Shown here: positions 36,344-57,512 of the stretch, in pieces
How positions within the stretch are numbered: the stretch's first letter is position 1
Layout: every line of letters begins with the position of its first letter
Virus record (IMG/VR): IMGVR_UViG_3300043438_001049
Source: an uncultured virus (IMG/VR IMGVR_UViG_3300043438_001049)
Taxonomy: Duplodnaviria; Heunggongvirae; Uroviricota; Caudoviricetes
Length of the DNA: 57,512 bases
Direction: 5' to 3' (one strand)
Translations under genes and position numbers: made by a program
Notes under the pieces: model-generated
Databases searched by the model: none
What the model saw: only the letters and a program-made list of their open reading frames with translations
Told to the model about the DNA's origin: nothing

Positions 36344-37114
36344 TTAAGACGTTAACTTTTTCCACTCTTCTTTTTGAATGGCTTGCTCAATTCTTACTTG
36401 TTTTTCTTCTTCTTTCCACTTATCAATAGTTTCTTGACTATATTCAATTTCAAAATAATCCCAAAAAGAAACCATAGTATATCTTGTGCCTTCTAATATT
36501 TTACTAACACCATGCACATTTTCTATTCCTCCAGGAAATACATAGTAAGAGTATGCATTTGGTTTAAAGGATAAATAGATGTCCCACTTTTCTCCTTCTG
36601 AATTTATTTCAAAGTCTTCTTTTTCTTTACAAAAGAAAAGATCTCCACCTTCATAGTCGTTATTAAGATATAGAATACCCACATACTTATTTATTTCAAA
36701 AGCGTTTGGGACCCCGTCATTATCTGAGTTGTCAGAATGAGGAGAAGCAAAACCGCCAACATCCCACTTCTGTGCATGAGATGTATTGGCTCTAACTTTT
36801 CTTTCAAAAACCAGTTCAACTGCTTCTTTAAACTTTTCTCTAAGGTCATCAAAAAATGTTAGCGTTAGACCATGTTCTTCAAGTCCTGGATCGTTTGCCA
36901 TTAATCCCATACCTAGAGATCCATAAAACGCTATGTCTCCCCAGTTTTCTCCTTTTGACTCTACATAATTAATTAGACATTGGCTTGTTTTTTCATCTAT
37001 AAAATTAGGAATTTCAACAATTCTGTTGTGAGTTATACCTAAAACACCCTTATTATTTAATTCATCTTTTAAATATTTAAAGTTATCTTTATTAAGTTGA
37101 TTAATGATAGTCAT
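36344..37114 (-). CDS. 2OG-Fe(II) oxygenase, prolyl-4-hydroxylase-like
   Basis: HSD...LYLNNDYEGGDL...HGV...GTRY. Confidence 0.88.
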   Translation of the reverse strand: MTIINQLNKDNFKYLKDELNNKGVLGITHNRIVEIPNFIDEKTSQCLINYVESKGENWGDIAFYGSLGMGLMANDPGLEEHGLTLTFFDDLREKFKEAVELVFERKVRANTSHAQKWDVGGFASPHSDNSDNDGVPNAFEINKYVGILYLNNDYEGGDLFFCKEKEDFEINSEGEKWDIYLSFKPNAYSYYVFPGGIENVHGVSKILEGTRYTMVSFWDYFEIEYSQETIDKWKEEEKQVRIEQAIQKEEWKKLTS

Positions 37115-37913
37115 TTTTTATGTAAACCCCGCTGCTTCTTTCAATGTTCATTCTGTCTTTTTCCATTTGCATCCATGTATCTGGTCCATATTTTTTTTGA
37201 TTCTCAATCCAAGCATCTGATGCTTGTTCATCTACATACCAAAAAGATCTAACAAAATACTTTTCTCCTTCAGTAGTTTCTCTTACTCCATGCCAGTACG
37301 GTGGCCTTGACGGAAAGATAATTACATCTCCTTCTTCTGGCTTATAAGTAATTCTTGTAAAAGAATCTTTATTGGAAAATACTTTAAATTCAATTTCTCC
37401 GCCATTATAGTTACTATTTAAATACATATTGCAAGTCAGGGCTTGTTTTTCTCCTGGACCCTCTGCATCTTCTTGTGGATAGTCTGTATGAAAAGACATA
37501 GAATATCTTGAATTGTTGTTTTCAATATGTGGAGAGTCACTTTCAGCCTTTGTAGAATCTTTTGAATTATAGTATTTGCATATGTCAGCCTTTAAAAATA
37601 CTAAGTCCTCTAAGGATAGACCCGTTGTATCAACATAATGCTTTGTTGTTTTATAAAAAACATCAAGTATATCCTTGTGTTGATCTGATACAAGAAAAGA
37701 TTCTATGTATAAAGACCATTCTTGATCTGAAGGAAAAGATTTAGATCGATAAAAATTGTTATTGAAAATTTTATAAATATCCCCAAAGTCATACCACTTT
37801 TCCCAAGTTGCGGAATCTAGAGAATCCAGAAGGCCACGCAAATCTTTAAATGGGTTCTTATATACAAAAATGTTTTGGTCTATTTTATTAAAATTAATAT
37901 TTTTAATTGTCAC
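37101..37913 (-). CDS. 2OG-Fe(II) oxygenase, prolyl-4-hydroxylase-like
   Basis: HTD...MYLNSNYNGGEI...HGV...GEKY. Confidence 0.88.
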   Translation of the reverse strand: MTIKNINFNKIDQNIFVYKNPFKDLRGLLDSLDSATWEKWYDFGDIYKIFNNNFYRSKSFPSDQEWSLYIESFLVSDQHKDILDVFYKTTKHYVDTTGLSLEDLVFLKADICKYYNSKDSTKAESDSPHIENNNSRYSMSFHTDYPQEDAEGPGEKQALTCNMYLNSNYNGGEIEFKVFSNKDSFTRITYKPEEGDVIIFPSRPPYWHGVRETTEGEKYFVRSFWYVDEQASDAWIENQKKYGPDTWMQMEKDRMNIERSSGVYIKNDYH

Positions 37914-38746
37914 ATTGCTACCTTAGATTCATCTATACCCTTTTTAATATTTGGCTTTTTGAAATCGTGATACCTGTCACCTCTATCAATTCTTTCTTTT
38001 TCCATCTTTGCCCATTCTTCAACACCAAATTTTTCTTGATTATCGTGCCACTCTTTTGTTCCAGCAAATGGAATTTGATAAAAGCATCTAATAAGATATT
38101 TGTCAATATTTCTAATTCTTTTAACACCGTGAAGGTATCTTCCCTCTTGAGATAATAAATCTGGATGGCCTGAAGGAAAAACCAAAACATCTCCAGCCTC
38201 TGGTTTATAATCTATAACCGTTTTATTCCCAGTTAAAAATGTTATACCTCCATCGCCATAGTCATCATTCAAATACATTGTGCATGTTAATGCAAATTGT
38301 GCTCCTGGGCAATCTGTTTCAAGGGCTTTATAGTCTGAGTGATGGATCATTTCTAAAGAATCTTTATCGCTATTTGGATCATTGTCATGAGTATATTTTG
38401 AAATTGATGGGCCCATAATAATCCAGTCCTCTCCTATTTTAAGATTATGGGCAGACATAAAATTTTCGGTTGCATAACCAAATGCATGCTGTATTGTTTC
38501 TAATGCCTCAACCTCTTCTAAATATAGTGTGTTATTAATATTAGGATCATCTTCATTTAGAAAATTACCAATGACATATACATAGTGTCCAAACCTACTC
38601 CATGGTTGCCAATCGTCAAATAAAAAACTAGTTCCTTTGTTTAATTCAGACTGCTTAAATAATTCTACAATCCTTTTATTGTTTGGAATTAACCCTTTGT
38701 AAACATAAATGTTTTCATCTAATTGTTTAACTGTAATATTATTCAT
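37910..38746 (-). CDS. 2OG-Fe(II) oxygenase, prolyl-4-hydroxylase-like
   Basis: HSD...MYLNDDYGDGGI...HGV...DKY. Confidence 0.88.
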   Translation of the reverse strand: MNNITVKQLDENIYVYKGLIPNNKRIVELFKQSELNKGTSFLFDDWQPWSRFGHYVYVIGNFLNEDDPNINNTLYLEEVEALETIQHAFGYATENFMSAHNLKIGEDWIIMGPSISKYTHDNDPNSDKDSLEMIHHSDYKALETDCPGAQFALTCTMYLNDDYGDGGITFLTGNKTVIDYKPEAGDVLVFPSGHPDLLSQEGRYLHGVKRIRNIDKYLIRCFYQIPFAGTKEWHDNQEKFGVEEWAKMEKERIDRGDRYHDFKKPNIKKGIDESKVAM

Positions 38747-38778
38747 TTTTTGTCCCCCATTGGATTATCTTTAAACAT
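38743..38778 (-). CDS. putative 11-aa leaderless uORF (MFKDNPMGDKK)
   Basis: ATG 6 nt after TGGTATAAT (38785-38793); its TGA overlaps the ATG of 37910-38746 (ATGA). Confidence 0.4.
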   Translation of the reverse strand: MFKDNPMGDKK

Positions 38779-38785
38779 ATAATTA

Positions 38786-39340
38786 TTATACCACCTTGTC
38801 TCCAAATAAAATTGCAAAACCAAATCTAGGGGTTATGGGTTCAACATAGTGGTAAGTTCCACCAGGTATATACAATAGATCTCCTTCTTCTAATATAACA
38901 TCCATAAAAGGTTGATCATTTTCAACAGAATCATAAAGTCTCCAACGTGTTTTACCTTTACATTGCCAATGTATATTGTTTTCCCTGTCTTCATGTTTGC
39001 CAATAACTTGTCCGCTATCTTCAAGTTTAAGTGAACCAAATAACTGACATGTTACAACCTTTAAATCTTTAAAACAAGGATAAAATCTAGAATGAACTTC
39101 TTTTACAAATAAATTTACTGAACTTATAATCTGTGCCTCATCATAAAATAATGCGTATGGATTAGGCAAAATCTTTTTACCAGTTTTTTTGTGCTCATAA
39201 TCATTTACAAACTGAAGCACTTCATCCCAGGTAACTTCAGGCATTGATATTTTTGGAAAAAGAGTTGCTACTTTATTATTATAAGCATTTAAAAAATTAT
39301 CTTGATCTAAAAAATTAAAATCAAAACTTTTATTTTTCAT
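38786..39340 (-). CDS. JmjC/cupin-type oxygenase
   Basis: HED...WQCKGKTRWRL...LEEGDLLYIPGGTYHYV. Confidence 0.85.
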   Translation of the reverse strand: MKNKSFDFNFLDQDNFLNAYNNKVATLFPKISMPEVTWDEVLQFVNDYEHKKTGKKILPNPYALFYDEAQIISSVNLFVKEVHSRFYPCFKDLKVVTCQLFGSLKLEDSGQVIGKHEDRENNIHWQCKGKTRWRLYDSVENDQPFMDVILEEGDLLYIPGGTYHYVEPITPRFGFAILFGDKVV

Positions 39341-40011
39341 TTTGATTTTCCATGTGAACGAATTGTAAAGAAAAAAGGAATAACATATCTAATTCCTTTT
39401 TTAATTTCTCTTACTCCGTGAATATAATTTAAATCTCCAGGGAAGAAATATGCAGAACCCGCTTTTGGCTTAAACTCAATTCCTTGATTTGGGAAATATA
39501 ACTCTCCACCTTCATAGTCATCATTAAGATAAAAAAGACCTGCAATATCATACCAAGGAAAATCATTTGGCTTTCCTACATTGTCTCCTTCGTGCAACTC
39601 TTTATCTGCATGTGGGTTTTGTAGTTGTCCTGGAAGCCATCTAACAATTGCTGTTGCTGTGGGCCAGGCGTCAATATTAAAAAAATCATTTACTTCTTCT
39701 GTAAGCCTGTCTTGAAGGCTTTTAATTACTGGGTTTATATTTTTATTATTTTGATCTAATCTATCTCCAGTGCAGACTCTGTCATCCCAATATTTAGAAT
39801 CATAAATAACAGTTCCTTCTTCGTTATAGTGAGTTTCAGTAATATCCCAAATTGTAATATTTTTTGCTGATTCTGATAAAAAAGATAGTTCTTCGTCGGT
39901 CATAAAATTGTTTCGTGCTTGGATCATATCTGCACTTTTACCAAAAAATCCAGAGGGAGTTATTGAAAATCTATCTTTATCTTGGTGATTAGAGTACTCT
40001 ATTTTTTTCAT
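39337..40011 (-). CDS. 2OG-Fe(II) oxygenase, prolyl-4-hydroxylase-like
   Basis: HAD...FYLNDDYEGGEL...HGV...GIRY; TGATATACT 6 nt upstream of ATG. Confidence 0.9.
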   Translation of the reverse strand: MKKIEYSNHQDKDRFSITPSGFFGKSADMIQARNNFMTDEELSFLSESAKNITIWDITETHYNEEGTVIYDSKYWDDRVCTGDRLDQNNKNINPVIKSLQDRLTEEVNDFFNIDAWPTATAIVRWLPGQLQNPHADKELHEGDNVGKPNDFPWYDIAGLFYLNDDYEGGELYFPNQGIEFKPKAGSAYFFPGDLNYIHGVREIKKGIRYVIPFFFTIRSHGKSK

Positions 40012-40031
40012 ACAGTTAGTATATCATCTTT

Positions 40032-40766
40032 CTATTCATATTTGCGCTGCTCCCAGATTTCATTTTTATATATTCCGCCATTTGGTTTTCTATAAATTTG
40101 ATAATTTTCTATTGATTGCTTCATTAGTTCAACTGCATTATCTTGTTCTATTATTTCAGAAGTCCAGGATTCTCTTTTAAATGGCAGAAGTTGAGCATAC
40201 GCTGTTCCTTCTGGAATAATTCCCTCAAAACCCTCACAAATAAAAAATGGAAAAGATCCAGGCATATGAACTTTGTCGTTATCCACAATTCCACTAGTTA
40301 GCAAAAATGGTAACTCAAATCTGTTAAATGGCTGAGTATACAATACGCTATATCCTGGAGGAGTTTTTATTTGCCAATCTGGAGTTATTGCAAAATGATT
40401 TTTGTAATACCCGCGGGGGTGTTCAAACTGTGGCATTTCTGATCTTTCTTCAATTAAGTTTTTATATTTTACATTTAAAACTTTATGTTTTAGTCCAGAA
40501 TCAGTCATGTAGAATTCAATATCGCAAGGAAGATTAAGAGAATATCCAGAACCCATAATATCAAAAATTGCAGGACAGGCCTTCCATGTAGGAACTTTTC
40601 CACCATCCTCTCCTATATAAAAAGAATTGTCTGTTGGTAATTTTGCAAACCTATCTGCTTTTCTAAACCATTCAGGAATTGTTCTTATAATTGGAGTTGG
40701 TGCTGACTTGCTTTCTTTTGAAAGCCAAATTTTATTTGCAATAAAAGATATTTTTTCTGTATTCAT
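40032..40766 (-). CDS. hypothetical protein of oxygenase cluster (possible dUTPase-like fold)
   Basis: PEWF...TWKACPAIFD...TPPGYSVLYTQP.N...SGIVDND...IPEGTAYAQLLPF. Confidence 0.6.
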   Translation of the reverse strand: MNTEKISFIANKIWLSKESKSAPTPIIRTIPEWFRKADRFAKLPTDNSFYIGEDGGKVPTWKACPAIFDIMGSGYSLNLPCDIEFYMTDSGLKHKVLNVKYKNLIEERSEMPQFEHPRGYYKNHFAITPDWQIKTPPGYSVLYTQPFNRFELPFLLTSGIVDNDKVHMPGSFPFFICEGFEGIIPEGTAYAQLLPFKRESWTSEIIEQDNAVELMKQSIENYQIYRKPNGGIYKNEIWEQRKYE

Positions 40767-41476
40767 TACTTGTCACTTTGATATTTATTAATTGAAAGTT
40801 TTAAGGATTTTACTTCGTGCTCTCCAAGGCTATTTCCTAAATGGTCAACAGCATCTCTATAAAAGTTTGTCCATTGTCCAGACTGAGTTATTTCTCCAGA
40901 GGCTTTTCCATATTCAGAAAGATTCTTTTCAAAATCTTGATCTTTTACATAGTCGTACAGATTTACTTCTGTTGCTTGGAGTTTTTTTAAACTAATTGGC
41001 ATAATACAAACAATTGGTGTTCCTGCTGGTATTGTTATTACTTCATTTGCCCTTGTTATTTTCCATGCATATGGAAGTGGAGCAAGATGGACAACTGGAC
41101 TAATTACACTTGAGAATCCTTGAACACCATCAATAAATTGATTTGGAACTGGAAGGAGCAGTAGACTAATCTCATCAGTACTTTTAAAATATAAACCACT
41201 ATTAAAACTTATAGTTCCGTTAGCCCTGTTTGCATGAACATACTTTTCTCCAGAAAGAATTTCAAGGTCTTCAGATCTAGAGTTTGGATCTGTTCCTTTC
41301 CAAATAAAAGAAATGTCTTCTGGAAAAGAAAATGTCCATCCTGTTGTGTTTGCCAACGATACTGGGAAGCAATGATAGGCGTGTTTGTCAAAAGTTTCAT
41401 CCATCCAGTTTCTTCTAACTTTTAAAGTATCAAAAGTTACATCAGAATGTGGTGTTTGATAAACATCTATAGACAT
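40766..41476 (-). CDS. DUF6065-like protein
   Basis: RRNWMDET...HAYHCFPVSLANTTGW, PVPN, AWKIT motifs recalled from DUF6065. Confidence 0.6.
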   Translation of the reverse strand: MSIDVYQTPHSDVTFDTLKVRRNWMDETFDKHAYHCFPVSLANTTGWTFSFPEDISFIWKGTDPNSRSEDLEILSGEKYVHANRANGTISFNSGLYFKSTDEISLLLLPVPNQFIDGVQGFSSVISPVVHLAPLPYAWKITRANEVITIPAGTPIVCIMPISLKKLQATEVNLYDYVKDQDFEKNLSEYGKASGEITQSGQWTNFYRDAVDHLGNSLGEHEVKSLKLSINKYQSDK

Positions 41477-41477
41477 G

Positions 41478-42164
41478 TTAGTTTCCTGTTTCTAAAAACA
41501 TCTCTGGTCCATGGAATTTTGCGCTGTAGTCTAGCATTGTTACAATTGAATATTTAGTTCCGCTAGTAACTGGCATTGCTCTATGAGAATACATATATGT
41601 TGATGGGAAAATATACAAATCTCCAGCACGTGGTTTTACTAATAAATCTTGGTGTTGAAAATGTAAACCACCGTCGACGTAGTCGTCATTTGGGTATGCA
41701 ACCAAAGACACTGTACAGTTATAAGAAAATCCATGATCATGATGATATTGGAAATGCTGACCCTCATGGTATCTAATAAAATTCATTGCTTCCCAAAACC
41801 TTAGTTCTGCAATATTAAACATTTTACGATAGTGCTCAACTGCTGGACTTTTTCTATCGTAGCAGTCTTGCCAAAGTTGTTGAAGCGCTAAAGATGCTTC
41901 TCCTGGTCTTTGTGCCATATCTTTCTTTGTAAACTTAAAGTCAACACAATCTCTATATTCTGGCATGCTTTCTTGATAGCCAACAAACGCTTCCATCCAG
42001 TGAAATGGGTTGCTTTGGTCTTCAAGAACAGACTCTAATCTGTTAATAATATCCAGTTCTTTAGGTAAAACATCTCTATAGACAAAAATTCCACTCCCTA
42101 GATCTTCAAAAGACGACCAGGTTTGCTCTATAGGGGTTGTCTCAGTTTGAACATGTTTTTGCAT
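41478..42164 (-). CDS. 2OG-Fe(II) oxygenase, prolyl-4-hydroxylase-like
   Basis: HHD...YPNDDYVDGGL...HRA...GTKY; TGCTATAAT at 42191-42199. Confidence 0.9.
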   Translation of the reverse strand: MQKHVQTETTPIEQTWSSFEDLGSGIFVYRDVLPKELDIINRLESVLEDQSNPFHWMEAFVGYQESMPEYRDCVDFKFTKKDMAQRPGEASLALQQLWQDCYDRKSPAVEHYRKMFNIAELRFWEAMNFIRYHEGQHFQYHHDHGFSYNCTVSLVAYPNDDYVDGGLHFQHQDLLVKPRAGDLYIFPSTYMYSHRAMPVTSGTKYSIVTMLDYSAKFHGPEMFLETGN

Positions 42165-42199: not shown

Positions 42200-42904
42200 C
42201 TAGTTATTCTTATGATGTAAATCGTTATAGTCTGTCATAATTACAACAGAATACTTTATACCCTGCAATAATTCACAAGAGGCATGCTCATAAACAAAAT
42301 TTGATGGGAAAAGAACAATGTCTCCAGCCTGGGGCTTAATCTTTAATTCTTGTCTTGGAAACTCTAATTCTCCACCAACATAGTCATCATTAAGATATAG
42401 TATTGCAGATATTGTACATGCATAGAATGGGCCATGGTCACCATGAAGTTTAAAATATTTCCCAGGTAGATACTTAACAAAATTAAAGGCTTCTTTGTAT
42501 TTCATCTGAAGATGCCATAAAGACTCATAATCATTTAGGCAGACATCTAATGCGTCTTCTACCTCTTTGTGTATGTCAAACATGTCTTGATTAAAAGATA
42601 TCCCAGACTTTCCAAGCATATCTCTTTTATATTTTATATCAATGCAGTTCCTAACATAATCTAAATTTTCTACATCATTAACCATTGCTGTAGACCAAGA
42701 AAGGTTACAGTCTGGATCGTTTGCTGAGTTTTCTAGTCTTTTAATTATACTATCACACTGGCTTCTATTTATGGCATTTTTATATACATTAATACCGTAG
42801 CCAATATTTAAAACCTCTATGTTATTTGACATTGATCTAGACTTTAGCCTACTGTCTGCTTTTTCTAATCTTGGTAAATCAAGCCACCCAAAGTTATTTG
42901 TCAT
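42200..42904 (-). CDS. 2OG-Fe(II) oxygenase, prolyl-4-hydroxylase-like
   Basis: HGD...LYLNDDYVGGEL...HAS...GIKY; paralogous to 41478-42164; TGCTATAAT 6 nt upstream of ATG. Confidence 0.9.
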   Translation of the reverse strand: MTNNFGWLDLPRLEKADSRLKSRSMSNNIEVLNIGYGINVYKNAINRSQCDSIIKRLENSANDPDCNLSWSTAMVNDVENLDYVRNCIDIKYKRDMLGKSGISFNQDMFDIHKEVEDALDVCLNDYESLWHLQMKYKEAFNFVKYLPGKYFKLHGDHGPFYACTISAILYLNDDYVGGELEFPRQELKIKPQAGDIVLFPSNFVYEHASCELLQGIKYSVVIMTDYNDLHHKNN

Positions 42905-44873: not shown

Positions 44874-44874
44874 A

Positions 44875-48966: not shown

Positions 48967-49025
48967 ATTTTATTTCTCCTTTATGGGGGCTGCCCATTAA
49001 CTTATCTTATTATAACACCCAATTT

Positions 49026-49475: not shown

Positions 49476-49510
49476 TTACTACTCCTTCTTCCAACTATTT
49501 TTATTTTTTA

Positions 49511-51577
49511 TTAAACTAGAAGTGTTCCCATAACAGTAACTGTTGAGTCATTGTTAGCGGTTGTTACCTGTAGTTGTACGTTTGCTCCTGAAATACCTGC
49601 TGAAATTGATGACGCTGAGCCATTTGTTCCAACAATTCCGTATTCAGTGATTGCAATGTTATCTGAAGAGTCAAGTGTCAAAAGGACCTTTGATATTTCA
49701 GTATGTGTTCCGTAGGCAACCTTTACAAGGTATTCTGCTGAACGGTAGTCAGCCTTTGCGAAGGCGTGTGCTACTTGAATTCCTGCTGTAGGTGCTGAAA
49801 GTGTTGCTGCAACCTGCTTAGCAACTGAGTTTAACTCAACTGCTGTGAAGTTTGGAACAACTGCTTCAAGAGCGTCTACTGCTCTTTGTGCTGTGAAGTA
49901 AAGGTTATTTGCTCCACCAGCACCAGTATTGTCTGTTCCTTCTGCAAGATCATTAGTATCAGAATCTGCTACACCGTTTTCTGCGGTAATAGTAAGTCCT
50001 GAACCTGTGCCTGAGATTGTAATATTTGTTAGTGTTGCACCAGTCAAAAGGGCTGCTGCTGAAGTCTTGGCACGAGCATCTGTAAAGTAAAGGTTTGTTG
50101 AGCCCTCTTCAATATCATCTGTGTCAATAAGATCAATCTGATCTTCAATTGTTCCACCAACAGCGTCAATTGCTCGCTGGTTTGTGAAGTAGAGGTTTGC
50201 TGAACCTTCTGCTACATCGTCTGTTATAAGGCTGTTTGCTACATCAGTTGCTGCTTGCTGTGCAATACTAATTTCTGTTGCTGTCTTATATGCTGACCAA
50301 ACCTCTGTTGAAAGGTTTGATGCATCATTGATCAAGTCATCTGCATAGTCCTTAGCATCTTGCTCTGCATCATCAGCATATGACTCATAAGCAGTTGTTA
50401 TTGCTGTCTCACGGCCATCTGTGTAAGAATTTGCATCAGATTCTGCTGTATTAGCATAACCCTGTGCTGTTGTAAGAGCAGTTGTAATTTCTCCATCTAC
50501 ATAACCCTTATTTGCTGCATCAGTTGAAGATGTTGGTGCTCCAAGGCTTGTAACCTTATTTGTTCCACCAAAGTCAAGGTTTCCGCTCATGCTGTCGCCA
50601 GCCTTTGCTACCTTTTCTCCAATTGATGTTGTAACTGTTGTAATAAAGTCTTCGTCATCACCAATTGCTTGGGCCAACTCATTAAGAGTGTCTAGCAGTT
50701 CTGGTGCTCCGTTAATTAAGTCTGCAACTGCTGTATCAACGTATGACTTTGTTGCTGCATCTTGGTTTGCTGAAGGATTTAGAAGACCAGATACCTTGTA
50801 ACCACCAGCAGCAAGATCGCTACCAAGTGTCTTATTAGAAAGTGTCTGTGTATCTGTTGTACCAACAACATTACCAGTTACTCCGTGTGCTGAAGTGTCT
50901 AATTCGTGTGTTGAAAGATCTCCTGCTACTGTACCAACAATTCCATCAGCATAAGACTTTGCATCAGCCTCTGCTGTGTCTGCGTATGATTCATAAGCAG
51001 TTGTAATTAATCCTTCACGAGTATCTGTGTAAGCCTTAGCATCTACTTCTGCTTGGTCAGCGTATGCTTCATAAGCAGTTGTAATTAATCCTTCACGAGT
51101 ATCTGTGTAAGCCTTAGCATCTACTTCTGCTTGGTCAGCGTATGCTTCATAAGCAGTTGTAATTAATACTTCACGAGCATCTGTGTAATCTTCAGCGTTT
51201 GATTGTGCTGTTGCTGCTGCTCCAACTGTATCCCAAAGACCAGTGTTAGCATCAATCGCTCTCTGGTTTGTAAAATACTTATTTGTTGCATTTTCTGCAA
51301 GGTCTGCAGTGTCATGGTTTGAAAGTGAAGAAACTGTTCCAGTTACGTTACCAATCAAGTCTGCTGTAATATCACCAGCAGCAAAATCTCCATTAGCATC
51401 ACGCTTTACAACTGTGTTTGCTGTGTTAGCAGATGTTGCTGTACCACCAATAAGATCAATAATATAATTTTGATCTGCTGTTTTCTTTGTAAGAACGTCA
51501 AAACCGTTAACTGTCGCTGTTGTACCTTCAACGATTAAACCACTCTTAATTTTAAAATCTTTATTTACTGTTGCCAT
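49511..51577 (-). CDS. fibre-like acidic virion protein with internal repeats
   Basis: ANTVVKRDANG, DAATKSYVD, LDTLNELAQA, repeated TDD..EG..NLYFT..RA motifs. Confidence 0.75.
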   Translation of the reverse strand: MATVNKDFKIKSGLIVEGTTATVNGFDVLTKKTADQNYIIDLIGGTATSANTANTVVKRDANGDFAAGDITADLIGNVTGTVSSLSNHDTADLAENATNKYFTNQRAIDANTGLWDTVGAAATAQSNAEDYTDAREVLITTAYEAYADQAEVDAKAYTDTREGLITTAYEAYADQAEVDAKAYTDTREGLITTAYESYADTAEADAKSYADGIVGTVAGDLSTHELDTSAHGVTGNVVGTTDTQTLSNKTLGSDLAAGGYKVSGLLNPSANQDAATKSYVDTAVADLINGAPELLDTLNELAQAIGDDEDFITTVTTSIGEKVAKAGDSMSGNLDFGGTNKVTSLGAPTSSTDAANKGYVDGEITTALTTAQGYANTAESDANSYTDGRETAITTAYESYADDAEQDAKDYADDLINDASNLSTEVWSAYKTATEISIAQQAATDVANSLITDDVAEGSANLYFTNQRAIDAVGGTIEDQIDLIDTDDIEEGSTNLYFTDARAKTSAAALLTGATLTNITISGTGSGLTITAENGVADSDTNDLAEGTDNTGAGGANNLYFTAQRAVDALEAVVPNFTAVELNSVAKQVAATLSAPTAGIQVAHAFAKADYRSAEYLVKVAYGTHTEISKVLLTLDSSDNIAITEYGIVGTNGSASSISAGISGANVQLQVTTANNDSTVTVMGTLLV
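50991..51188 (-). repeat. 78-bp coding tandem repeat, about 2.5 copies
   Basis: unit YTDTREGLITTAYEAYADQAEVDAKA; near-identical DNA starting at 50991, 51069, 51147. Confidence 0.9.
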
Positions 51578-51595
51578 TTTTTATATCTCCTTTTA

Positions 51596-52042
51596 TTACG
51601 CCTTAAGTCCAATTCGTGCGTAACGAACTGTGACTGGCTTGATCGCAGGATCTGGAGTGACTGTAATAGCCACGGTATTTCCAGTGCGAGAGACATCAAT
51701 GGTGCCAATATTCCCATCATTGTCGATAGTGCCGTACTCGCTGACTGATACATTTGTACCGTCAACAAGAATTGTTAATTCAGTTGCATAGAACTTATTG
51801 TCCCCTGCAGAGGTCTTTGATATTGAAATAATATACTTGACCATGCGCCAAACTGTAGCATCAAAGTTATCAATGACAGTTACATTTTCAATGCCGTTGA
51901 CTTCATTTTCGTTGTTACCCTTTGATCCCAAATCTGTTGCTTGGGCTGAAGCGGTATCAATTAAGTCTACGTAATTTTCTTGAGTTGGTCTATCACCTGT
52001 TTGGAATAAACCTTTTACATCTGAAATTGATATTTTAGCCAT
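51596..52042 (-). CDS. putative virion protein
   Basis: FQTGDRPTQENYVDLIDT N-terminal motif; C-terminal domain resembles that of 49511-51577; leaderless layout. Confidence 0.65.
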   Translation of the reverse strand: MAKISISDVKGLFQTGDRPTQENYVDLIDTASAQATDLGSKGNNENEVNGIENVTVIDNFDATVWRMVKYIISISKTSAGDNKFYATELTILVDGTNVSVSEYGTIDNDGNIGTIDVSRTGNTVAITVTPDPAIKPVTVRYARIGLKA

Positions 52043-52074
52043 GTGGTAATTATATCACCCTTTTAATTATCTAA

Positions 52075-52299
52075 TTAGAGAATATAGTTGCTGTAGCCAA
52101 TAACCTGTAGTGGGATTGCTGGAGTATTACCTAAACCAATAGCCACAATCTGAATGGCTGAAAACTTAACTCTAAAAGGAAGTATATCTGTAATCAAAGT
52201 GTTTCTTGTAAAGTCTTCTACCTGAATTAATGGATAGTCAATAGGAAAAATTTGTTTTGTTTTGCCGTTAAGTTTATCAAGTATTAATGCTGTGGCCAT
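52075..52299 (-). CDS. small hypothetical protein
   Basis: 74-aa ORF with 1-nt overlap to upstream stop. Confidence 0.65.
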   Translation of the reverse strand: MATALILDKLNGKTKQIFPIDYPLIQVEDFTRNTLITDILPFRVKFSAIQIVAIGLGNTPAIPLQVIGYSNYIL

Positions 52300-52709
52300 T
52301 AATCTGTTACATCTTCAAGAATTTTTAGGCTACCCTGAGCAACCGTCCAAACTCTTGTAGGGTCTGACACTTGAATGTCAAAGATGTCTCCTGTTTGAAG
52401 TTGTACTGACTCTGCTGCTGTTAGCCAAACTGTAAACTCTCCAACTAGGTCATCTTCATCTGCAACTGGATATAAATTTAAAACTAGTGTCGCAGCATCT
52501 GTAATAATTCCAGGGGTTGAAGTAGGTCTTTTAATCTTCATAGCAATATCCCATTCAGATCCCGCGCCTTTTAGGATCAAAGGAACTTTAGCATCATCTG
52601 TTACATAAACCTTAAACCCAGAAGTATCTCCACGAACTACAGTCCAAATAACTGTTGGCGGTGCATTGCCAATATCGTATGATGTTTGAGATCCTCTTAA
52701 AGTTGCCAT
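52299..52709 (-). CDS. putative virion protein (beta-sandwich)
   Basis: VVRGDT...FDIQVS...WTVAQG.L....DVT pattern; TGATATAAT 5 nt upstream. Confidence 0.6.
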   Translation of the reverse strand: MATLRGSQTSYDIGNAPPTVIWTVVRGDTSGFKVYVTDDAKVPLILKGAGSEWDIAMKIKRPTSTPGIITDAATLVLNLYPVADEDDLVGEFTVWLTAAESVQLQTGDIFDIQVSDPTRVWTVAQGSLKILEDVTD

Positions 52710-52720
52710 AGTTTATTATA

Positions 52721-53257
52721 TCACGACAGGCCGTCTTTGAGAGCGCCCCAAGTGCCGTTTCCTTTTGTTTGAACTATTAACATACCGCTAACTGACTGAA
52801 TGGCAACAACGGCTACATATCTTGCTGGTCCTGTACTTGGACGGGTTGAAACAAGTGTTCCACTTTCATCAACATAAACCCTTGTGCCAGGAAGACCAAG
52901 ACCTGTTGTATTCATTTCTAAAACACCAGAAACAATTACAAGCCCATTTGTATTATTTGCAATACTGCTTTTTACTAACCCTAATATTGGAATATCTGGA
53001 TTGTGAGATACACTTGATGGATTATATTTTTCTATTAATGATTTTCCACTAAGACTTCCGCTAATAAAAACTGGTGTACCAGTATCAATTGCTGCTCCTG
53101 TAGTATTTCTAGCATCAAGATATGCTGCGCCATAGCCTAGTGGAGGCAAAATATCATTTAAAGCATCAACTAATACTTTAAAGTCTCCGTGTACGTTCAC
53201 GGGATCAGAAGCAATAGGATATTTCATAGTAGGATAATTAGATGATGATTGCGCCAT
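52721..53257 (-). CDS. putative virion/capsid decoration-like protein
   Basis: 178 aa; GTPVFISG...GLV....NGLVIVSGVL...PGTRVYV..SGTL pattern; TGGTATAAT 7 nt upstream. Confidence 0.55.
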   Translation of the reverse strand: MAQSSSNYPTMKYPIASDPVNVHGDFKVLVDALNDILPPLGYGAAYLDARNTTGAAIDTGTPVFISGSLSGKSLIEKYNPSSVSHNPDIPILGLVKSSIANNTNGLVIVSGVLEMNTTGLGLPGTRVYVDESGTLVSTRPSTGPARYVAVVAIQSVSGMLIVQTKGNGTWGALKDGLS

Positions 53258-53283
53258 AATTTCTATTATACCACCCTCTAAAG

Positions 53284-53313
53284 TTGACTTTTGACAAATT
53301 TTTATGTTATACT
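53284..53313 (+). promoter_or_regulatory. sigma70-type promoter for the lytic transglycosylase gene
   Basis: TTGACT (53284-53289), 18-nt spacer, TG-T-TATACT (53305-53313); back-to-back with - strand TGGTATAAT at 53265-53273. Confidence 0.7.
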
Positions 53314-53360
53314 AGTAAGTAACACCTACCAAGGTGTTGTTGTTTTCTAAGGAGGAAACT

Positions 53361-53924
53361 ATGATTAAATTTATCGAAAGAAACAAAGAGATCATTAGCA
53401 CACTCAGTATCGTAGCACTAGTAACAGTTATGTCTAATTCTGCTAATGCTATTTCAGATTTTGATACTAAGAATAACCTTAGCCTGAAACAGGCTCAGAC
53501 ATCGGAAACCACCTCGAAAGAGGTTTTTTTGGTTTCTAAAGCAAAAAAGTTAGAGAGTTTTGAAAATAAGGTTTCTCTAACAGATTTAGAACTAAAGGAA
53601 CTGCTTTCCCTAGTTGGCTTCAAGGGTAAAGACCTTGTTGTGGCTTGGGCAGTAGCAAAGAAAGAATCTAATGGACGACCATTGGCCTTTAATGGCAATC
53701 ACAAGACTGGGGATTCGTCTTATGGTATGTTCCAAATTAATATGATTGATACACTTGGTCCTGATCGTAGGGACAAGTTTGATCTTGACTCTAACGCTGA
53801 ATTATTTAATCCCGTCAAGAATGCTGAAATTGCATACTACATGACAAAGGGTGGGGACGACTGGTCTTCTTGGAAAGGCATCACTCCAAAGACTAAGGAA
53901 TGGATGGCTAAGTTTCCTCGCTAA
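53361..53924 (+). CDS. secreted lytic transglycosylase (SLT/lysozyme-like); start reassigned to ATG 53361
   Basis: AAGGAGG SD; N-terminal hydrophobic helix ending SNSANA; catalytic KESNG, YGMFQIN, NPVKNA, WSSW. Confidence 0.82.
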   Translation: MIKFIERNKEIISTLSIVALVTVMSNSANAISDFDTKNNLSLKQAQTSETTSKEVFLVSKAKKLESFENKVSLTDLELKELLSLVGFKGKDLVVAWAVAKKESNGRPLAFNGNHKTGDSSYGMFQINMIDTLGPDRRDKFDLDSNAELFNPVKNAEIAYYMTKGGDDWSSWKGITPKTKEWMAKFPR

Positions 53925-54874
53925 TTCCTTCTTGGTGGCATGCCAAGTGCCCTAGGCTCAACTACAACATGTGAACTGTAGTTTGGAATAAAGTCTGTGT
54001 ATTTTGTGTCTATACCAGACTCTTTAAGAAAATTGTAAACTTTTTCTTTTGGAATTTCTAATTGACCAGACATTAGCATAGACAGTCTATTAGTTGATTC
54101 TTCAACATGGCTCCAGTAGTGTTCTTTTCTGCCGTCTGCCCAAGGCCTAAGCGTTTCTCTTGTTACAGATCCATTTGCCTGTCCATGCGACTGATTGTGA
54201 AAAACATCCCTTGTGCCAATAGAGTAAATTTTCCAATCTTTTGCATAAGTTCTTAAAGATAAAGCAAACTCTTCAGTATTGAATGATTCTTTACCGCTAA
54301 TACCAACTTCATCAATCCATTGCTTGGGTGCAAAAAGGTAACAACATGTAGCCCAATACGAACGAACTATTTCCTCTATTTCTAAAACCCTGTATCCTGG
54401 AAACTGAAATCCTGGAACTAAATTATTAAATAAAAATCCATACAGTGATACTTTACAGTCTGTAACAAAATTAATTGACCCGTCTGACATTATTTTATAC
54501 TCTGCTGGGGCATATGCAATAATAAATTTTTCATTATTAATATTTAATTTTTCATATCTTTCAACAGCAAACCTATCCCATTCTGGTGCTGCATAGGTGT
54601 GTGAATCAAACTGTATAAAATAGTTATAATCTACATTAACTTGAGTTGCCAAGTTTCTAGCCCAACAGACACCACCCCTATACTCTGAAAGATCAAAGTG
54701 CCTATATAATAACTGTTCTTTTGGTATAAAAGATAAATCATATTTAGTATTATCTTCTGAAACTATAGAAAAATACAGATCCTCTTTATTTTTTGCCTGA
54801 TGCCACAAAGAAAACATTGTAGAATAAAACTCTGGGTCACAATAATTGACAACACTAACTAATATTTTTTTCAT
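53921..54874 (-). CDS. GT60/'GlcNAc'-family glycosyltransferase (Skp1-hydroxyproline GlcNAc-transferase-like)
   Basis: ILVSVVNYCDPE, GVCWARN, YFIQFDSH...WD, EEFALSLR motifs match the GT60 pattern including the DSH signature. Confidence 0.78.
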   Translation of the reverse strand: MKKILVSVVNYCDPEFYSTMFSLWHQAKNKEDLYFSIVSEDNTKYDLSFIPKEQLLYRHFDLSEYRGGVCWARNLATQVNVDYNYFIQFDSHTYAAPEWDRFAVERYEKLNINNEKFIIAYAPAEYKIMSDGSINFVTDCKVSLYGFLFNNLVPGFQFPGYRVLEIEEIVRSYWATCCYLFAPKQWIDEVGISGKESFNTEEFALSLRTYAKDWKIYSIGTRDVFHNQSHGQANGSVTRETLRPWADGRKEHYWSHVEESTNRLSMLMSGQLEIPKEKVYNFLKESGIDTKYTDFIPNYSSHVVVEPRALGMPPRRN

Positions 54875-55431
54875 CCCTTATTTCTTATTCCAGTATATAA
54901 ATGTTGTGGGCCTTTTGTAAAAAACCAATGATCTGGCTCTACATAAAAGAAAAAAGCATTTGCAACTAGGTTATTCTTTGGGTCAGGGAATTCCTCTCTC
55001 CAGTGTTGTTGATCATTCCCGTATGAAATAACCATATCATTTTCTTCTGGTTGAAACTTTATTCCTTCAACATAAAAATCCCAAGGTGTTTTATGAAAAA
55101 TTGTATAATTCATATGGTATGTACAAGCATTATCATCAACATGTTTCCAAAGTCTAGCCTTTTCTCCTTCATAGATACTTAATAAACACCAGGAAGGAAG
55201 TAATGTTTCTGATTCAAATTCTTCTTTTGCCAGTGGTAGAAGCATCTGATGAAATTTTCTAAGTGGTATTATATTTTCTCTATGTGTTCCGTCCCAAATT
55301 GCCCATTGATGTCTACCAAAACCTTCGTCAAATGTACTTTTATCTGTTGACCAAAGATGCATTGCTAGATCTTGTAATTCCTTATGTTCTTTTTCTGGAA
55401 GAACGGTTTTTAATAAATATGGCGCTTTCAT
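54871..55431 (-). CDS. 2OG-Fe(II) oxygenase
   Basis: LWKHVDDNAC...PWDFYVEG...YGNDQQHWRE...FFFY. Confidence 0.75.
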   Translation of the reverse strand: MKAPYLLKTVLPEKEHKELQDLAMHLWSTDKSTFDEGFGRHQWAIWDGTHRENIIPLRKFHQMLLPLAKEEFESETLLPSWCLLSIYEGEKARLWKHVDDNACTYHMNYTIFHKTPWDFYVEGIKFQPEENDMVISYGNDQQHWREEFPDPKNNLVANAFFFYVEPDHWFFTKGPQHLYTGIRNKG

Positions 55432-55943
55432 CGTAGAAAACTAACTACTGCATATTTATCGCCTTCAATAATTGGGGATACTGAGTGATTATAAACATAT
55501 ATAGATGGAAATATAATTATTTGATTAGTTTTTGGTTTAAGTTTAATATTAAATCTTGGAAAGTTTATTTCTCCACCAATATAATCATCATTTAAATAAT
55601 ATACAACTGAAACTCTTCTATGATATTCGGTTCCGTCATCTACATGATTAATAAAACCTTGTCCTGGACTATATTTCATTATTCCGTATACGTCATGCCA
55701 TTCAGGAAATATCTTATAATACTCTTTATAGTCTTTCTCTATTGGATCAAAATGATCAAAGAACAACCTGTTTAATTTTAAAGAAGTTATTTTTTCTAAA
55801 TCTTCAACTTCTGCATAAGACCATTTAGGTGTAATCCATTTAGAATCCATCATCAATTTTTGAATTTCTTTATATAAAAAAACATTATCTGGAATTACAT
55901 TATCATATACAACAATTCCTGGAGCAATTTCTTCTTTTATCAT
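55428..55943 (-). CDS. 2OG-Fe(II) oxygenase, prolyl-4-hydroxylase-like (start probably ATG 55941-55943)
   Basis: HVD...YYLNDDYIGGEI...HSV...GDKY; MIKEEIAPGIVVY start overlaps upstream stop by 1 nt. Confidence 0.88.
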   Translation of the reverse strand: MIKEEIAPGIVVYDNVIPDNVFLYKEIQKLMMDSKWITPKWSYAEVEDLEKITSLKLNRLFFDHFDPIEKDYKEYYKIFPEWHDVYGIMKYSPGQGFINHVDDGTEYHRRVSVVYYLNDDYIGGEINFPRFNIKLKPKTNQIIIFPSIYVYNHSVSPIIEGDKYAVVSFLR

Positions 55944-56140
55944 TACCATTTTCCTAACGGACACGATGCTGCTTCTAACATTACTTTTGCTTTCATAAAA
56001 CATCCACATTTTTTACATTGTTTTGTTAATTTTATTAGTTCTGGACATTGTTTGCATATATTAAATCTTTGATTAGAGAGATCTGATTCCTTTACATAAT
56101 TTTTTAAATTAAGCATGTGTAAAGGATTTACTTCGTTCAT
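55943..56140 (-). CDS. small Cys-rich metal-binding protein
   Basis: RFNICKQC...QCKKCGCFM..K......CPLGKW; six Cys in 65 aa. Confidence 0.75.
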   Translation of the reverse strand: MNEVNPLHMLNLKNYVKESDLSNQRFNICKQCPELIKLTKQCKKCGCFMKAKVMLEAASCPLGKW

Positions 56141-56141
56141 T

Positions 56142-57512
56142 TTATTCTGAATCTCTTTGTGTTAGGCCTTGGAAGACACCCTTCTTATTATGAGAGATTA
56201 GATCTCCTGCAATAAAGAGTGAATAAGGATTTACAGTGATGTCATAAACATCTGTTGTTTCATCAACATAACCCAATACTTCAACAAGTACATCTGTTGC
56301 TTGATTATTTATGTCATAAACTAAATAGTCGCCAAGTTTAATTACACCAGCCTGAATAAATGCGTATACTCCATCTCTCTTAACTAGCATTAAGTGCTCT
56401 AGAGAGAATCTTCTTTGCTTACTACCATTAAACATTACAGTAGTTGCAACATCTCTTGCTTTAATTGCACTAATAGTTGTTTCAACAACTGATGATCCAG
56501 TTAGAGTATCAGATACCCATGTCTCAGCAAAATCAACAGATGAGTTATCTGGTAATTCATTGAAACTGTAGGATACTAGACTTTGTCCTATAAACAAATC
56601 TCTTGCTTTAACATATCCACTAGTTGTTCTTACAAGAACATCACCCTGTACACATCCATCAATTGGTGCAACTGGTGTTGGTTCAGTTGGAGTTGGGGTA
56701 AATACTGGTGGGAAGAATGGACAGAATACTGGTGGGAAGAACGGACAGAATACTGGTGGGAAGAACGGACAGAATACTGGTGGGAAGAACGGTGGGAAGA
56801 ACGGTGGGAAGAACGGTGGGAAGAATGGTCCTGTTGCTGGAGGCGTACAGTCTTGTGTGTCCGAATCTGTTCCTGTTGTAACAATTGGGGCTGGGTTTGG
56901 AGAACATCCACTTGCAGTTTCTGTTATAGTATACGATCTAGTTCTTGTTTGTGCATATTCATCTGGGCCACCAACTCTTACACAAGCACCCCAAGGACCC
57001 CACTCACCGTAAGTTGTTGTTGTTGTCCAGGTTGGTACACATGTTGGTGCAACTGGTGCAACTGGTGCAACTGGTGCAGTTGGTGTAGGTGTTGTACAAG
57101 TTACTGATGGATATCCTGAAGAACTTGCTGCAGTAATATTGGTTGCAGTTGGATATGTTGCTAATAAATTATCTAATGCCTGTCCTGATGTTGCTCCTGT
57201 GTCAGTAACCGTAGTTCCACCAACACAACCAGAGATATACCAAGTTGTTGCAACAGGTGTTGGAGTAGGTGTTGTACAAGTTACTGATGGATATCCTGAA
57301 GAACTTGCTGCAGTAATATTGGTTGCAGTTGGATATGTTGCTAATAAATTATCTAATGCCTGTCCTGATGTTGCTCCTGTGTCAGTAACCGTAGTTCCAC
57401 CAACACAACCAGAGATATACCAAGTTGTTGCAACAGGTGTTGGAGTAGGTGTTGTACAAGTTACTGATGGATATCCTGAAGAACTTGCTGCAGTAATATT
57501 GGTTGCAGTTGG
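56142..57512 (-). CDS. second PPFF-repeat/Hint protein; starts beyond window end (visible 456 codons open)
   Basis: manual translation is open from 57512 to stop 56142: 60-aa Thr/Pro/Cys repeats, TSR-like motif, GPFF(PPFF)3(PPVFCPFF)3PPVF, TPTPTEPTPVAPIDG, then CVQGDVLV...ISHNKK; the ORF track called only the last 151 aa. Confidence 0.88.
   Translation of the reverse strand, partial: PTATNITAASSSGYPSVTCTTPTPTPVATTWYISGCVGGTTVTDTGATSGQALDNLLATYPTATNITAASSSGYPSVTCTTPTPTPVATTWYISGCVGGTTVTDTGATSGQALDNLLATYPTATNITAASSSGYPSVTCTTPTPTAPVAPVAPVAPTCVPTWTTTTTYGEWGPWGACVRVGGPDEYAQTRTRSYTITETASGCSPNPAPIVTTGTDSDTQDCTPPATGPFFPPFFPPFFPPFFPPVFCPFFPPVFCPFFPPVFCPFFPPVFTPTPTEPTPVAPIDGCVQGDVLVRTTSGYVKARDLFIGQSLVSYSFNELPDNSSVDFAETWVSDTLTGSSVVETTISAIKARDVATTVMFNGSKQRRFSLEHLMLVKRDGVYAFIQAGVIKLGDYLVYDINNQATDVLVEVLGYVDETTDVYDITVNPYSLFIAGDLISHNKKGVFQGLTQRDSE
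56187..56654 (-). other. Hint domain, copy 2, 156 aa
   Basis: Cys1 at 56652-56654, SLEH, VYDITV, HN at 56187-56192; same length as copy 1, offset 11267 bp. Confidence 0.85.
56700..56828 (-). repeat. second PPFF/PFFPPVFC coding repeat
   Basis: same 12- and 24-bp DNA units as 45385-45642. Confidence 0.95.
57085..57512 (-). repeat. perfect 180-bp coding tandem repeat, at least 2.4 copies, runs off the window
   Basis: 57085-57264 = 57265-57444, third copy partial; unit PTATNITAASSSGYPSVTCTTPTPTPVATTWYISGCVGGTTVTDTGATSGQALDNLLATY. Confidence 0.95.

Follow-up and report, generated by a model that had tools for sequence, protein, structure and literature searches.

Two Hint-capped proline/phenylalanine-repeat proteins head runs of prolyl-4-hydroxylase-like and transferase genes in an uncultured tailed phage

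We describe a candidate system for the modification of structural proteins in a stretch of 57,512 nucleotides of DNA (hereafter, the window) from an uncultured virus of the Caudoviricetes (IMG/VR record IMGVR_UViG_3300043438_001049). Two genes in the window encode proteins in which a tract of repeated Pro and Phe residues, written here as (PPFF)n, precedes a C-terminal Hint domain, and each of them heads a run of genes for putative 2-oxoglutarate (2OG)-Fe(II) oxygenases and transferases. All genes of interest lie on the minus strand. Comparisons covered approximately 200 viral loci, either related to the window or matching the repeat pattern, and in these loci genuine PPFF tracts and the enzyme set occur together across several gene orders. 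Judged by gene position and modeled folds, the Pro-rich stalks of these two fibre-region proteins may be the substrates of the co-transcribed enzymes, a proposal whose chances we put at even.

An earlier note, prepared from the letters of the window alone, had pointed to the two repeat-Hint genes and to a gap of a single nucleotide between each of them and the next gene of its run; both genes and both gaps (base 44874, before a sulfotransferase-like gene, and base 56141, before a DUF6171 gene) are as it described them. The first repeat-Hint gene and its run comprise the following features, with lengths in amino acids (aa) and with P4H standing for prolyl 4-hydroxylase, BIL for bacterial intein-like, and SAM for S-adenosylmethionine.

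44875-46239, minus strand: repeat-Hint protein 1, 454 aa, FN3-FN3-(PPFF/FCP)n-Hint-tail; match to phrog_38766, "virion structural protein," in the Hint part
45388-45642, minus strand: Pro/Phe tract of protein 1, 85 aa (aa 200-284), with 38 F, 36 P, 5 C, 3 R and 3 V
44920-45387, minus strand: Hint domain (BIL-type) of protein 1, with Cys1, S-M-E-H and S-H-N
44878-44919, minus strand: 14-aa tail after the Hint Asn of protein 1, KKGAFQGLTIRDSQ
44187-44873, minus strand: sulfotransferase-like gene, PF03567 Sulfotransfer_2, marginal (24.6 bits against a cut-off of 22); phrog_3347, weak
43619-44206, minus strand: Asp/Asn beta-hydroxylase-like (AspH-like) 2OG oxygenase, PF05118 Asp_Arg_Hydrox, clear (41.1 bits against 22.6)
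42949-43626, minus strand: probable SAM methyltransferase, weak (seven methyltransferase models, every one below its cut-off)
42200-42904, minus strand: P4H-like oxygenase Oxy_f, PF13640, the first conserved enzyme of the battery
41478-42164, minus strand: P4H-like oxygenase Oxy_e, PF13640
40766-41476, minus strand: DUF6065 protein, modeled with a dUTPase-like fold; Pfam 99.5 bits
40032-40766, minus strand: distant DUF6065 paralogue; phrog_7084, 4e-35
39337-40011, minus strand: P4H-like oxygenase Oxy_d, PF13640
38786-39340, minus strand: JmjC/cupin-type oxygenase, JmjC_2 (38.2 bits against 22)
37910-38746, 37101-37913 and 36344-37114, minus strand: three further P4H-like oxygenases, PF13640

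Protein 1 carries two FN3 domains, as had been proposed: Pfam fn3 matches with 39 bits against a cut-off of 25, and PDB matches to titin FN3 domains cover residues 66-194. The trio behind it, read earlier as sulfotransferase, Asp/Asn hydroxylase and methyltransferase, is firm in its middle member, marginal in its first and weak in its last. The JmjC gene of the earlier note was recovered, its five P4H-like genes proved to be six PF13640 genes (28.6-47 bits against 27), and its two unknowns are present and can be named as the DUF6065 protein and a distant paralogue. Between these last two, blastp gives an E of 0.68, and their kinship comes from profile comparison (hhalign 92%, E 7e-7), both matching phrog_7084.

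The genes of run 1 overlap or sit tightly spaced on one strand, and no terminator-like site was found on the minus strand between 46239 and 36344. Codon usage within the tract of protein 1 departs from that of the genome: TTC encodes 35 of 38 Phe residues and CCG 10 of 36 Pro residues, against a TTT:TTC ratio of 275:65 and 4 CCG among 326 Pro codons in eight reference genes. The TTC- and CCG-rich codons run against the genome preference and avoid long runs of T or C, which explains the local rise in GC content; the tract is kept at the protein level. Single-nucleotide gaps and overlaps, the terminator-free strand and the tract codon usage fit co-expression of the enzymes with, and their action on, neighboring structural proteins.

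The second repeat-Hint gene heads a shorter run, referred to here as module 2.

56142->57512, minus strand: repeat-Hint protein 2, its 5' end cut by the end of the window; 573 aa in a near-identical contig
56655-56828, minus strand: PPFF/FCP tract and Thr/Pro linker of protein 2, 58 aa
56187-56654, minus strand: Hint domain (BIL-type) of protein 2, with Cys1, S-L-E-H and S-H-N; 85% identical to the Hint of protein 1
56145-56186, minus strand: 14-aa tail after the Hint Asn of protein 2, KKGVFQGLTQRDSE
55943-56140, minus strand: DUF6171, small Cys-rich protein of 65 aa, PF19668 (33.5 bits against 27); phrog_13558
55428-56009, minus strand: P4H-like 2OG-Fe(II) oxygenase Oxy_g, PF13640 (51 bits), HVD ... 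H-x9-K
54871-55431, minus strand: possible divergent 2OG oxygenase, without a Pfam match; phrog_2954, 3e-12; hhalign to the Oxy_d family 60%, E 9e-5; HVD motif
53921-54874, minus strand: GT60-type glycosyltransferase, PF11397 (73.6 bits against 21, profile positions 96-315 of 352); phrog_24687, glycosyltransferase

Protein 2 consists of (APTPV)n, three repeats of approximately 60 aa, a Cys/Trp module, (PPFF)n, a Thr/Pro linker, the Hint domain and the 14-aa tail. The approximately 60-aa units are encoded by a 180-bp tandem repeat (window 57079-57512, 2.4 copies, 99% identical), and in the near-identical contig two units are identical and one is divergent. The last 307 bases of the window (57206-57512) fall in this tandem repeat and are absent from the contig copy used in the analysis. 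A TSR domain claimed for this protein is not supported: the N-terminal 281 residues match no Pfam family, TSP_1 included, at E <= 10, and the W..W..C...R.R pattern is a look-alike. The Cys-rich protein, the P4H-like enzyme and the GT60-like glycosyltransferase described behind it were all recovered; the additional 2OG oxygenase placed between the latter two is weakly supported, with a PHROG match and a profile alignment on one side and no Pfam match on the other. Because the ORF (open reading frame) of Oxy_g overlaps DUF6171, its start is probably an internal Met. No PDB sequence matched the GT60-type protein.

Module 2 differs in content among relatives of the window. Among 25 of the 38 unlabelled ORFs lying there between the repeat protein and an SLT-type lysozyme-like gene, a scan identified nine NAD-dependent epimerase/dehydratases, one GT61, one short-chain dehydrogenase, one methyltransferase-like protein (all models below cut-off) and one weak, sub-threshold O-FucT-like protein. 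The neighbors of these ORFs are fibre-like proteins rich in tracts of (VTPA)n, (TP)n, (APTE)n or (TTAA)n. With sugar enzymes beside Thr/Pro-rich fibre-like proteins, the module-2 position in relatives amounts to a glycosylation cassette next to mucin-like linkers.

All seven PF13640 genes of the window exceed the family cut-off of 27 bits (28.6-51 bits), and all seven contain the HxD...H Fe(II) triad together with a basic residue for 2OG (H-x9-K/R). Across the 26 sequences of the Oxy_f family, H154, D156, H207 and K217 are invariant. The closest solved relatives of Oxy_f by sequence are the Bacillus anthracis P4H (E 0.002) and a chlorovirus P4H (0.049), and the top structural match of its model (pLDDT 83) is the chlorovirus enzyme vCPH (5C5T, 2.3e-10), followed by an algal P4H with (Ser-Pro)5 (3GZE), the B. 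anthracis P4H, PHD2, PPHD/EF-Tu and Dictyostelium PhyA (rank 28); the top matches by PDB identifier are 5C5T, 3GZE, 2JIG and 5HV0. Protein prolyl hydroxylases account for 49 of the 50 structural matches listed, the exception being PolD, a small-molecule enzyme, at rank 13. As modeled, the fold of Oxy_f is closest to those of peptidyl-prolyl hydroxylases, and hydroxylase activity is predicted. A complex prediction of Oxy_f with a 95-residue tract, run without controls, scored 0.00 and is evidence neither way. Homologues of Oxy_f occur in 181 of 50,697 cultured-phage records, mostly cyanophages, with up to 32% identity (cyanomyoviruses). Homologues of these 2OG oxygenases in cyanophage records (ACG-2014f), as well as phrog_2954 and phrog_3531, are labelled "ferrochelatase," probably a propagated misannotation.

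The association of tract and enzymes was followed in two ways. A search of viral contigs with protein 1 gave at least 606 pattern matches, with 375 relatives confirmed among the matches listed, and we analyzed the best 80 of these 375. In all 80, a FN3-FN3-(PFF/PPFF)n protein directly follows homologues of the fibre genes of the window, and ends variably, in some cases with a Hint domain and in others with a knot rich in Cys (C..C..YCW..CP.CCG.CGC is one) or with a short tail. Where at least 3 kb of sequence continues downstream (69 repeat ORFs), an oxygenase-like ORF lies no more than three ORFs on in 64 of 69 and somewhere downstream in 69 of 69, so the layout noticed earlier in the window does recur. 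Clustering of the N-terminal 190 aa of the relatives gives 33 groups at 90% identity but no more than 7 at 70%, which points to one diversified lineage rather than many independent ones. Most relatives have no Hint domain but a Cys-rich or short tail at that end, and still keep the tract and the enzyme battery; it is the repeat, not the Hint, that the enzymes accompany.

The second approach was a DNA scan with a degenerate (PPFF)3 pattern that is blind to FN3, Hint and enzymes. It returned at least 125 viral stretches, flanks being obtained for 80. Among the 71 loci with at least 3 kb downstream, oxygenase-like genes were found downstream in 55 and DUF6065-like genes in 50, compared with oxygenase-like genes upstream in 4 of 52 loci; the co-occurrence that the earlier note had suggested looking for is thus present in this sample. 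It was found in at least three different gene orders, the first being that of the window itself. In a second arrangement, a fibre gene and a short protein ending in ...PP.FK are followed by three Oxy_d-like genes, Oxy_e, DUF6065 and sometimes a sulfotransferase, and in a third, a mid-protein tract is followed by two DUF6065-like genes, an AspH-like gene and a P4H-like gene. A fourth arrangement consists of proteins of 700-1383 aa in which the tract is an internal linker and no enzymes lie within 7 kb. Three of the five contigs of this last kind have PF13640 genes elsewhere, one of them with six approximately 30 kb away, and the two that have none are the shortest fragments (18% and 31% complete); the other exceptions have PF13640 genes on one of three contigs. 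Behind the second repeat protein, too, a P4H-like gene is one of the first one or two ORFs in several gene orders.

As a control, the same pattern was run against 596 Gb of bacterial genomes and matched 22 times. Six matches are genuine long tracts, phage-like and from four metagenome-assembled genomes (MAGs); oxygenase and/or DUF6065 homologues accompany five of these, and in the sixth the sequence stops 1 kb beyond the tract. The remaining 16, of a short chance type in unrelated, mostly GC-rich DNA, have oxygenase or DUF6065 homologues in 0 of 16 cases.

The scan also yielded observations on the tract itself. At seven loci, (PPFF)n is an internal linker between folded domains of phage proteins of 326-1383 aa (one of them, L168, with the tract followed by a Hint domain), and as such it behaves as a portable spacer module. 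Several related contigs (six) break off within the Pro/Phe tract, and contigs that are otherwise nearly identical carry different repeat units (R versus V in FCPFFPP[RV]F); the tract is an assembly breakpoint and probably variable within populations. Relatives without a Hint domain often end in Cys-rich knots, the same knot type occurring on both kinds of repeat protein (for example, at eight loci), and DUF6171, a small CxxC protein, is encoded one or two genes downstream of most knot-ending proteins.

Individually, the Hint sequences score below the Pfam Intein_splicing cut-off of 35.8 bits (24.8 for protein 1 and 18.8 for protein 2). A profile of 10 Hint homologues, however, matches PDB 2LWY, a bacterial intein-like domain, with an E of 2.9e-8 and then mini-inteins at 6e-7 to 1e-4. 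Both domains of the window start with CVQGD, carry S-x-E-H in block B and S-H-N at the end, and are followed by Lys at position +1, without Cys, Ser or Thr there. By its sequence, the domain belongs to the HINT superfamily as a type-A BIL domain with every residue for N- and C-terminal cleavage, and cleavage itself is predicted. The self-cleavage proposed earlier agrees with the residues present. The domain is also dispensable, most relatives having tract and enzymes but no Hint. BIL domains, which lack a +1 nucleophile, mainly yield N- and C-cleaved products (PMC7664689).

A Hint-profile search returned 60 loci with 44 distinct Hint proteins, and a Pro/Phe(Tyr) repeat lies just upstream in 41 of the 41 in which the upstream part is present. 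Three types can be told apart: type i, including both window copies, has Cys1, the block-B His, H-N and a conserved 14-aa tail; type ii has Cys1, lacks the block-B His and ends in H-N-K-stop; and type iii has Ser1 and ends in F-D-N plus a tail. The tail motif KKG.FQG.T.RD.. is found only in type i, where it is kept in 10 of 10 sequences although the Hint domains are approximately 53% identical. The sulfotransferase/AspH/methyltransferase trio follows 7 of 10 type-i Hints and 0 of 34 other Hint sequences. The idea that the trio tailors the 14-aa tail was weakened by homologues of two of the three enzymes (sulfotransferase and AspH) at Hint-less loci. Extra cleavage at F/C junctions in the tract was considered and rejected, as the closest Hint-less relatives (five loci) share FCP repeats.

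Hint-capped virion proteins have a precedent, by annotation, in a cultured phage. Gp108 of Dickeya phage vB_DsoM_AD1 (L291, 1499-2938) is annotated as a virion structural protein and adjoins a tail-fibre gene; it consists of a collagen-like G-X-Y stalk, a C-terminal Hint domain (Cys1, T-H-E-H, A-H-N, +1 Thr) and a 10-aa tail, and homologous Hint regions are present in 46 Erwinia and 1 Yersinia jumbo-phage records. The FN3-PPFF part of protein 1 had no match in cultured phages; the matches, confined to the Hint domain (49 records), include C-terminal Hint domains of proteins annotated as virion or tail proteins in Erwinia and Dickeya jumbo phages.

It is plausible that these components act in sequence. 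The stalks would be (PPFF)n in both proteins plus (APTPV)n and the Thr/Pro linkers in protein 2. Late in infection, the P4H-like 2OG/Fe(II) oxygenases, seven intact paralogues with the JmjC- and AspH-like enzymes, would hydroxylate stalk prolines; this would mirror collagen and extensin, stabilize a polyproline-II stalk and make a greasy Pro/Phe polymer soluble. In module 2, the GT60-type transferase could then add N-acetylhexosamine to hydroxyproline or to Thr of the linkers, a role that a larger nucleotide-sugar and glycosyltransferase cassette might take in relatives, and in module 1, the sulfotransferase and methyltransferase could add further groups. Finally, the BIL-type Hint would undergo an N-to-S acyl shift at Cys1, its terminal Asn would cyclize and the domain would remove itself, so that the mature protein would end at or near the repeat. 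A bolder version, which we consider unlikely, is an extensin/collagen-like phage chemistry on (PPFF)n, with up to approximately eight P4H-like paralogues followed by glycosylation, sulfation or methylation, in which the Hint thioester ligates the modified stalk to the conserved +1 Lys, to the 14-aa tail or to some other part of the virion or of the host surface. Ligation without a nucleophilic side chain is what the 2LWY paper names in its title.

That the Pro tracts are built-in substrates, as the earlier note had it, is consistent with the co-occurrence, the HxD...H-x9-K/R residues, the fold and the glycosylation cassette of relatives, whereas the DUF6065 pair does not fit. Several further points weigh against this proposal. 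The evidence for it is of two kinds, gene position and fold, and to our knowledge PPFF is not among the known P4H motifs, which include X-Pro-Gly, (Ser-Pro)n, PAPK and LxxLAP. Sixteen of the 71 pattern loci lack downstream oxygenases, and behind four second-copy Hint proteins only DUF6171 and fibre genes follow. The counts are raw tallies and, because most loci share a homologous fibre gene, do not represent independent events. For the PBCV-1 P4H, the closest known viral enzyme, a review gives the role as unknown and reports that hydroxyproline was not detected in virion proteins (PMC7019647).

The alternative that survives best, possible though on balance improbable, is that the battery is an auxiliary or host-directed cluster that hydroxylates proteins of the host or small molecules, free amino acids among them, as is commonly supposed for the 2OG-Fe(II) oxygenase clusters of aquatic phages, its adjacency to the repeat arising from a variable region between the fibre module and the ribonucleotide reductase (RNR) gene. 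The frequency of Oxy_f homologues in cyanomyoviruses (among the 181 records) would suit such a role, as would the structural neighbors PPHD, which modifies EF-Tu, and PolD, and the fibre gene shared by most supporting loci means that synteny could account for the adjacency. P4HA is moreover listed among abundant viral auxiliary metabolic genes (AMGs) in one report, which calls its use "cryptic" (PMC9301287). Several features speak against the auxiliary reading: the adjacency is directional, strongly favoring the downstream side, and survives several rearrangements; a separate second repeat protein likewise lies near a P4H-like gene; three of the five non-adjacent contigs still carry PF13640; and the enzymes sit inside a late-type structural gene string without a terminator-like site.

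The DUF6065 pair brings in a less probable alternative, a pathway of nucleotide or DNA modification in which the oxygenases, this pair and the three kinds of transferase (methyl, sulfo and glycosyl) would work together with the neighboring RNR. The DUF6065 model (pLDDT 78) aligns with dUTPase 8y1q at a VIA-align Z of 9.9 (root-mean-square deviation 3.1 over 115 residues), and all 13 chains at Z >= 8 are dUTPases or viral proteins aligning with them, at 8-14% identity; the Foldseek match is weak (1.3e-3). On this modeling, DUF6065 is assigned a dUTPase-like beta-barrel fold. A tblastn search with DUF6065 against cultured phages gave no match; for its paralogue, homologues turned up in 50 records of cultured viruses, and 48 of these records are of haloarchaeal tailed viruses. 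In the 2 of these 50 records that were inspected, cyanophage S-RIM4 and Halorubrum virus Serpecor1, a DUF6065-like gene lies no more than approximately 1 kb from RNR, the battery of the window likewise abuts RNR, and 2OG oxygenase genes lie 3-4 kb from the DUF6065-like gene in S-RIM4. The dUTPase-like fold and the RNR neighborhood together mean that the pair may serve nucleotide metabolism instead of protein tailoring, which counts against the stalk-substrate proposal. Three points speak against the pathway as a whole: its oxygenases are of the PF13640/P4H type, with no AlkB- or TET/JBP-type enzyme among the 50 structural matches listed for Oxy_f; the identity of DUF6065 to dUTPases is 8-14% in the structural alignments; and other arrangements keep DUF6065 with oxygenases and a repeat protein, with no RNR match in the fetched flanks. 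We consider it quite improbable.

The DUF6065-like genes of those viruses are at 6998-7792 (L289) and 5857-6687 (L290), the corresponding window positions being 40032-41476, and their adjacency to RNR is a hint that this uncharacterised family has a function related to nucleotides.

A RiPP-like role (ribosomally synthesized and post-translationally modified peptide), also raised in the earlier note, in which the Hint domain frees a small peptide (the 14-aa tail or a piece of the tract) that the enzymes tailor into a diffusible product, would draw on the conserved tail motif of type-i Hints and the trio that follows most of them, but it is very improbable: the four tail-bearing lineages are each other's closest relatives and may be a single event, sulfotransferase homologues occur at four Hint-less loci and AspH homologues at two others, no leader-peptide logic was seen, general Pfam scans of the window genes, made without a dedicated RiPP search, showed no dedicated protease or exporter family, and the proteins that contain the tracts are 250-1400 aa long and have FN3 or fibre domains, the tract in many of them linking internal parts.

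The stalk-substrate proposal also draws on the setting of the two runs. The window covers the greater part of a viral contig of 59.9 kb that is approximately 55% complete (CheckV), and it also codes for a portal, a protease, a capsid protein, minor tail proteins, a helicase/primase and RNR. Three features flank or separate the runs.

34207-36240, minus strand: ribonucleotide reductase, directly downstream of the enzyme battery; phrog_367, 1e-141
46270-53257, minus strand: fibre block, with genes at 52721-53257, 52299-52709, 52075-52299, 51596-52042, 49511-51577 (fibre), 49026-49475 and 46270-48966 (fibre, Mtd_N)
53334-53924, plus strand: SLT-type lysozyme-like gene, SLT_3 (57.7 bits), which divides module 2 from the fibre block

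The fibre block matches tail fibre and minor tail PHROGs, and its gene order is kept in relatives. The tape-measure protein (2955 aa, window 12126-20993) implies an unusually long tail, and with the portal, capsid and minor tail genes, it indicates a long-tailed siphovirus-type phage. The nearest cultured portals are those of Streptomyces phages of approximately 133 kb, with 47-48% identity across 95% of the protein. A host assignment from MAG labels was rejected, as Verrucomicrobiales, Gammaproteobacteria, Acidibacter and Cyclobacteriaceae disagree with one another. An ORF of 1238 aa (30465-34181), between the RNR and portal genes, matches neither a Pfam nor a PHROG family. When 13.5 kb of the sequence was compared with cultured phages by megablast, the only match was one of 60 bp in a fibre repeat.

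Of the auxiliary genes in aquatic phages that still lack an explanation, those for P4H-type 2OG-Fe(II) oxygenases rank among the most frequent. The report that calls the use of P4HA "cryptic" concerns a Baltic virome (PMC9301287), and even the chlorovirus P4H has no known natural substrate (PMC7019647). Our literature search likewise found no natural substrate for phage P4H-like enzymes. With the enzymes directly behind a distinctive and easily synthesized repeat, the substrate question becomes directly testable with peptides and by co-expression. If the stalks are indeed the substrates, hydroxylation and possibly sulfation would join the few known post-translational modifications of phage virions, (PPFF)n would be defined as a new protein polymer, and BIL/Hint domains would gain a role in virion maturation.

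Each kind of component (P4H, BIL and GT60) is known, and the literature search found no published description of their combination, of PPFF repeats or of Hint-capped phage fibre proteins with hydroxylase batteries. The closest viral parallel is the PBCV-1 vCPH (5C5T), a small virus-encoded P4H and the top structural match of the Oxy_f model; it is, however, a single enzyme of a eukaryotic virus and not beside a dedicated substrate gene, whereas here at least seven paralogues lie behind Pro/Phe-repeat genes in a tailed phage. Eriksson et al. (1999) reportedly dealt with the PBCV-1 prolyl 4-hydroxylase and with the Pro-rich repeat ORFs of that virus. The 2OG-Fe(II) clusters of cyanomyoviruses contain homologous PF13640-type genes, and S-RIM4 has a DUF6065-like gene near oxygenases and RNR, but these clusters have no known substrate.

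Hydroxylation followed by glycosylation is familiar from the Skp1 pathway of Dictyostelium and Toxoplasma, in which the prolyl hydroxylase PhyA acts before Gnt1, a GT60 enzyme. Module 2 likewise has P4H-type and PF11397/GT60 genes within 2 kb, and PhyA is among the structural matches of Oxy_f; the putative acceptors here are long repeats and not one Pro, and relatives of the phage swap GT60 for GT61 or other sugar enzymes. The analogy would be one of functional resemblance only. Among phages, mycobacteriophages reportedly glycosylate their virions, with glycosyltransferases of actinophage-type siphoviruses decorating the phages' own virion proteins (Freeman et al. 2023), and we know of no hydroxylase, Pro/Phe polymer or Hint domain in those systems.

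With the type-A BIL domain of Clostridium thermocellum (2LWY), the phage Hint domain shares Cys1, the block-B His, the terminal His-Asn and the lack of a +1 nucleophile, but it lies at the C terminus, followed by no more than a Lys or a 14-aa tail, and always stands behind a Pro/Phe repeat in phage fibre-region proteins. AD1 gp108 and its homologues resemble the window proteins in having a repeat stalk, a C-terminal Hint domain and a short tail beside a tail-fibre gene, and differ in the G-X-Y stalk, the +1 Thr and the absence of an oxygenase battery from the 5.4 kb inspected. Finally, the hydroxyproline-rich glycoproteins of plants and algae (extensins) offer the likeness of Pro-rich polyproline-II repeats that are hydroxylated and then O-glycosylated, and 3GZE is the second-best structural match; unlike extensins, the phage repeat is PPFF, PFF or FCP, in which Ser is nearly absent and Tyr is scarce, and is accompanied by sulfo- and methyl-transferases and a Hint cap in a bacteriophage.

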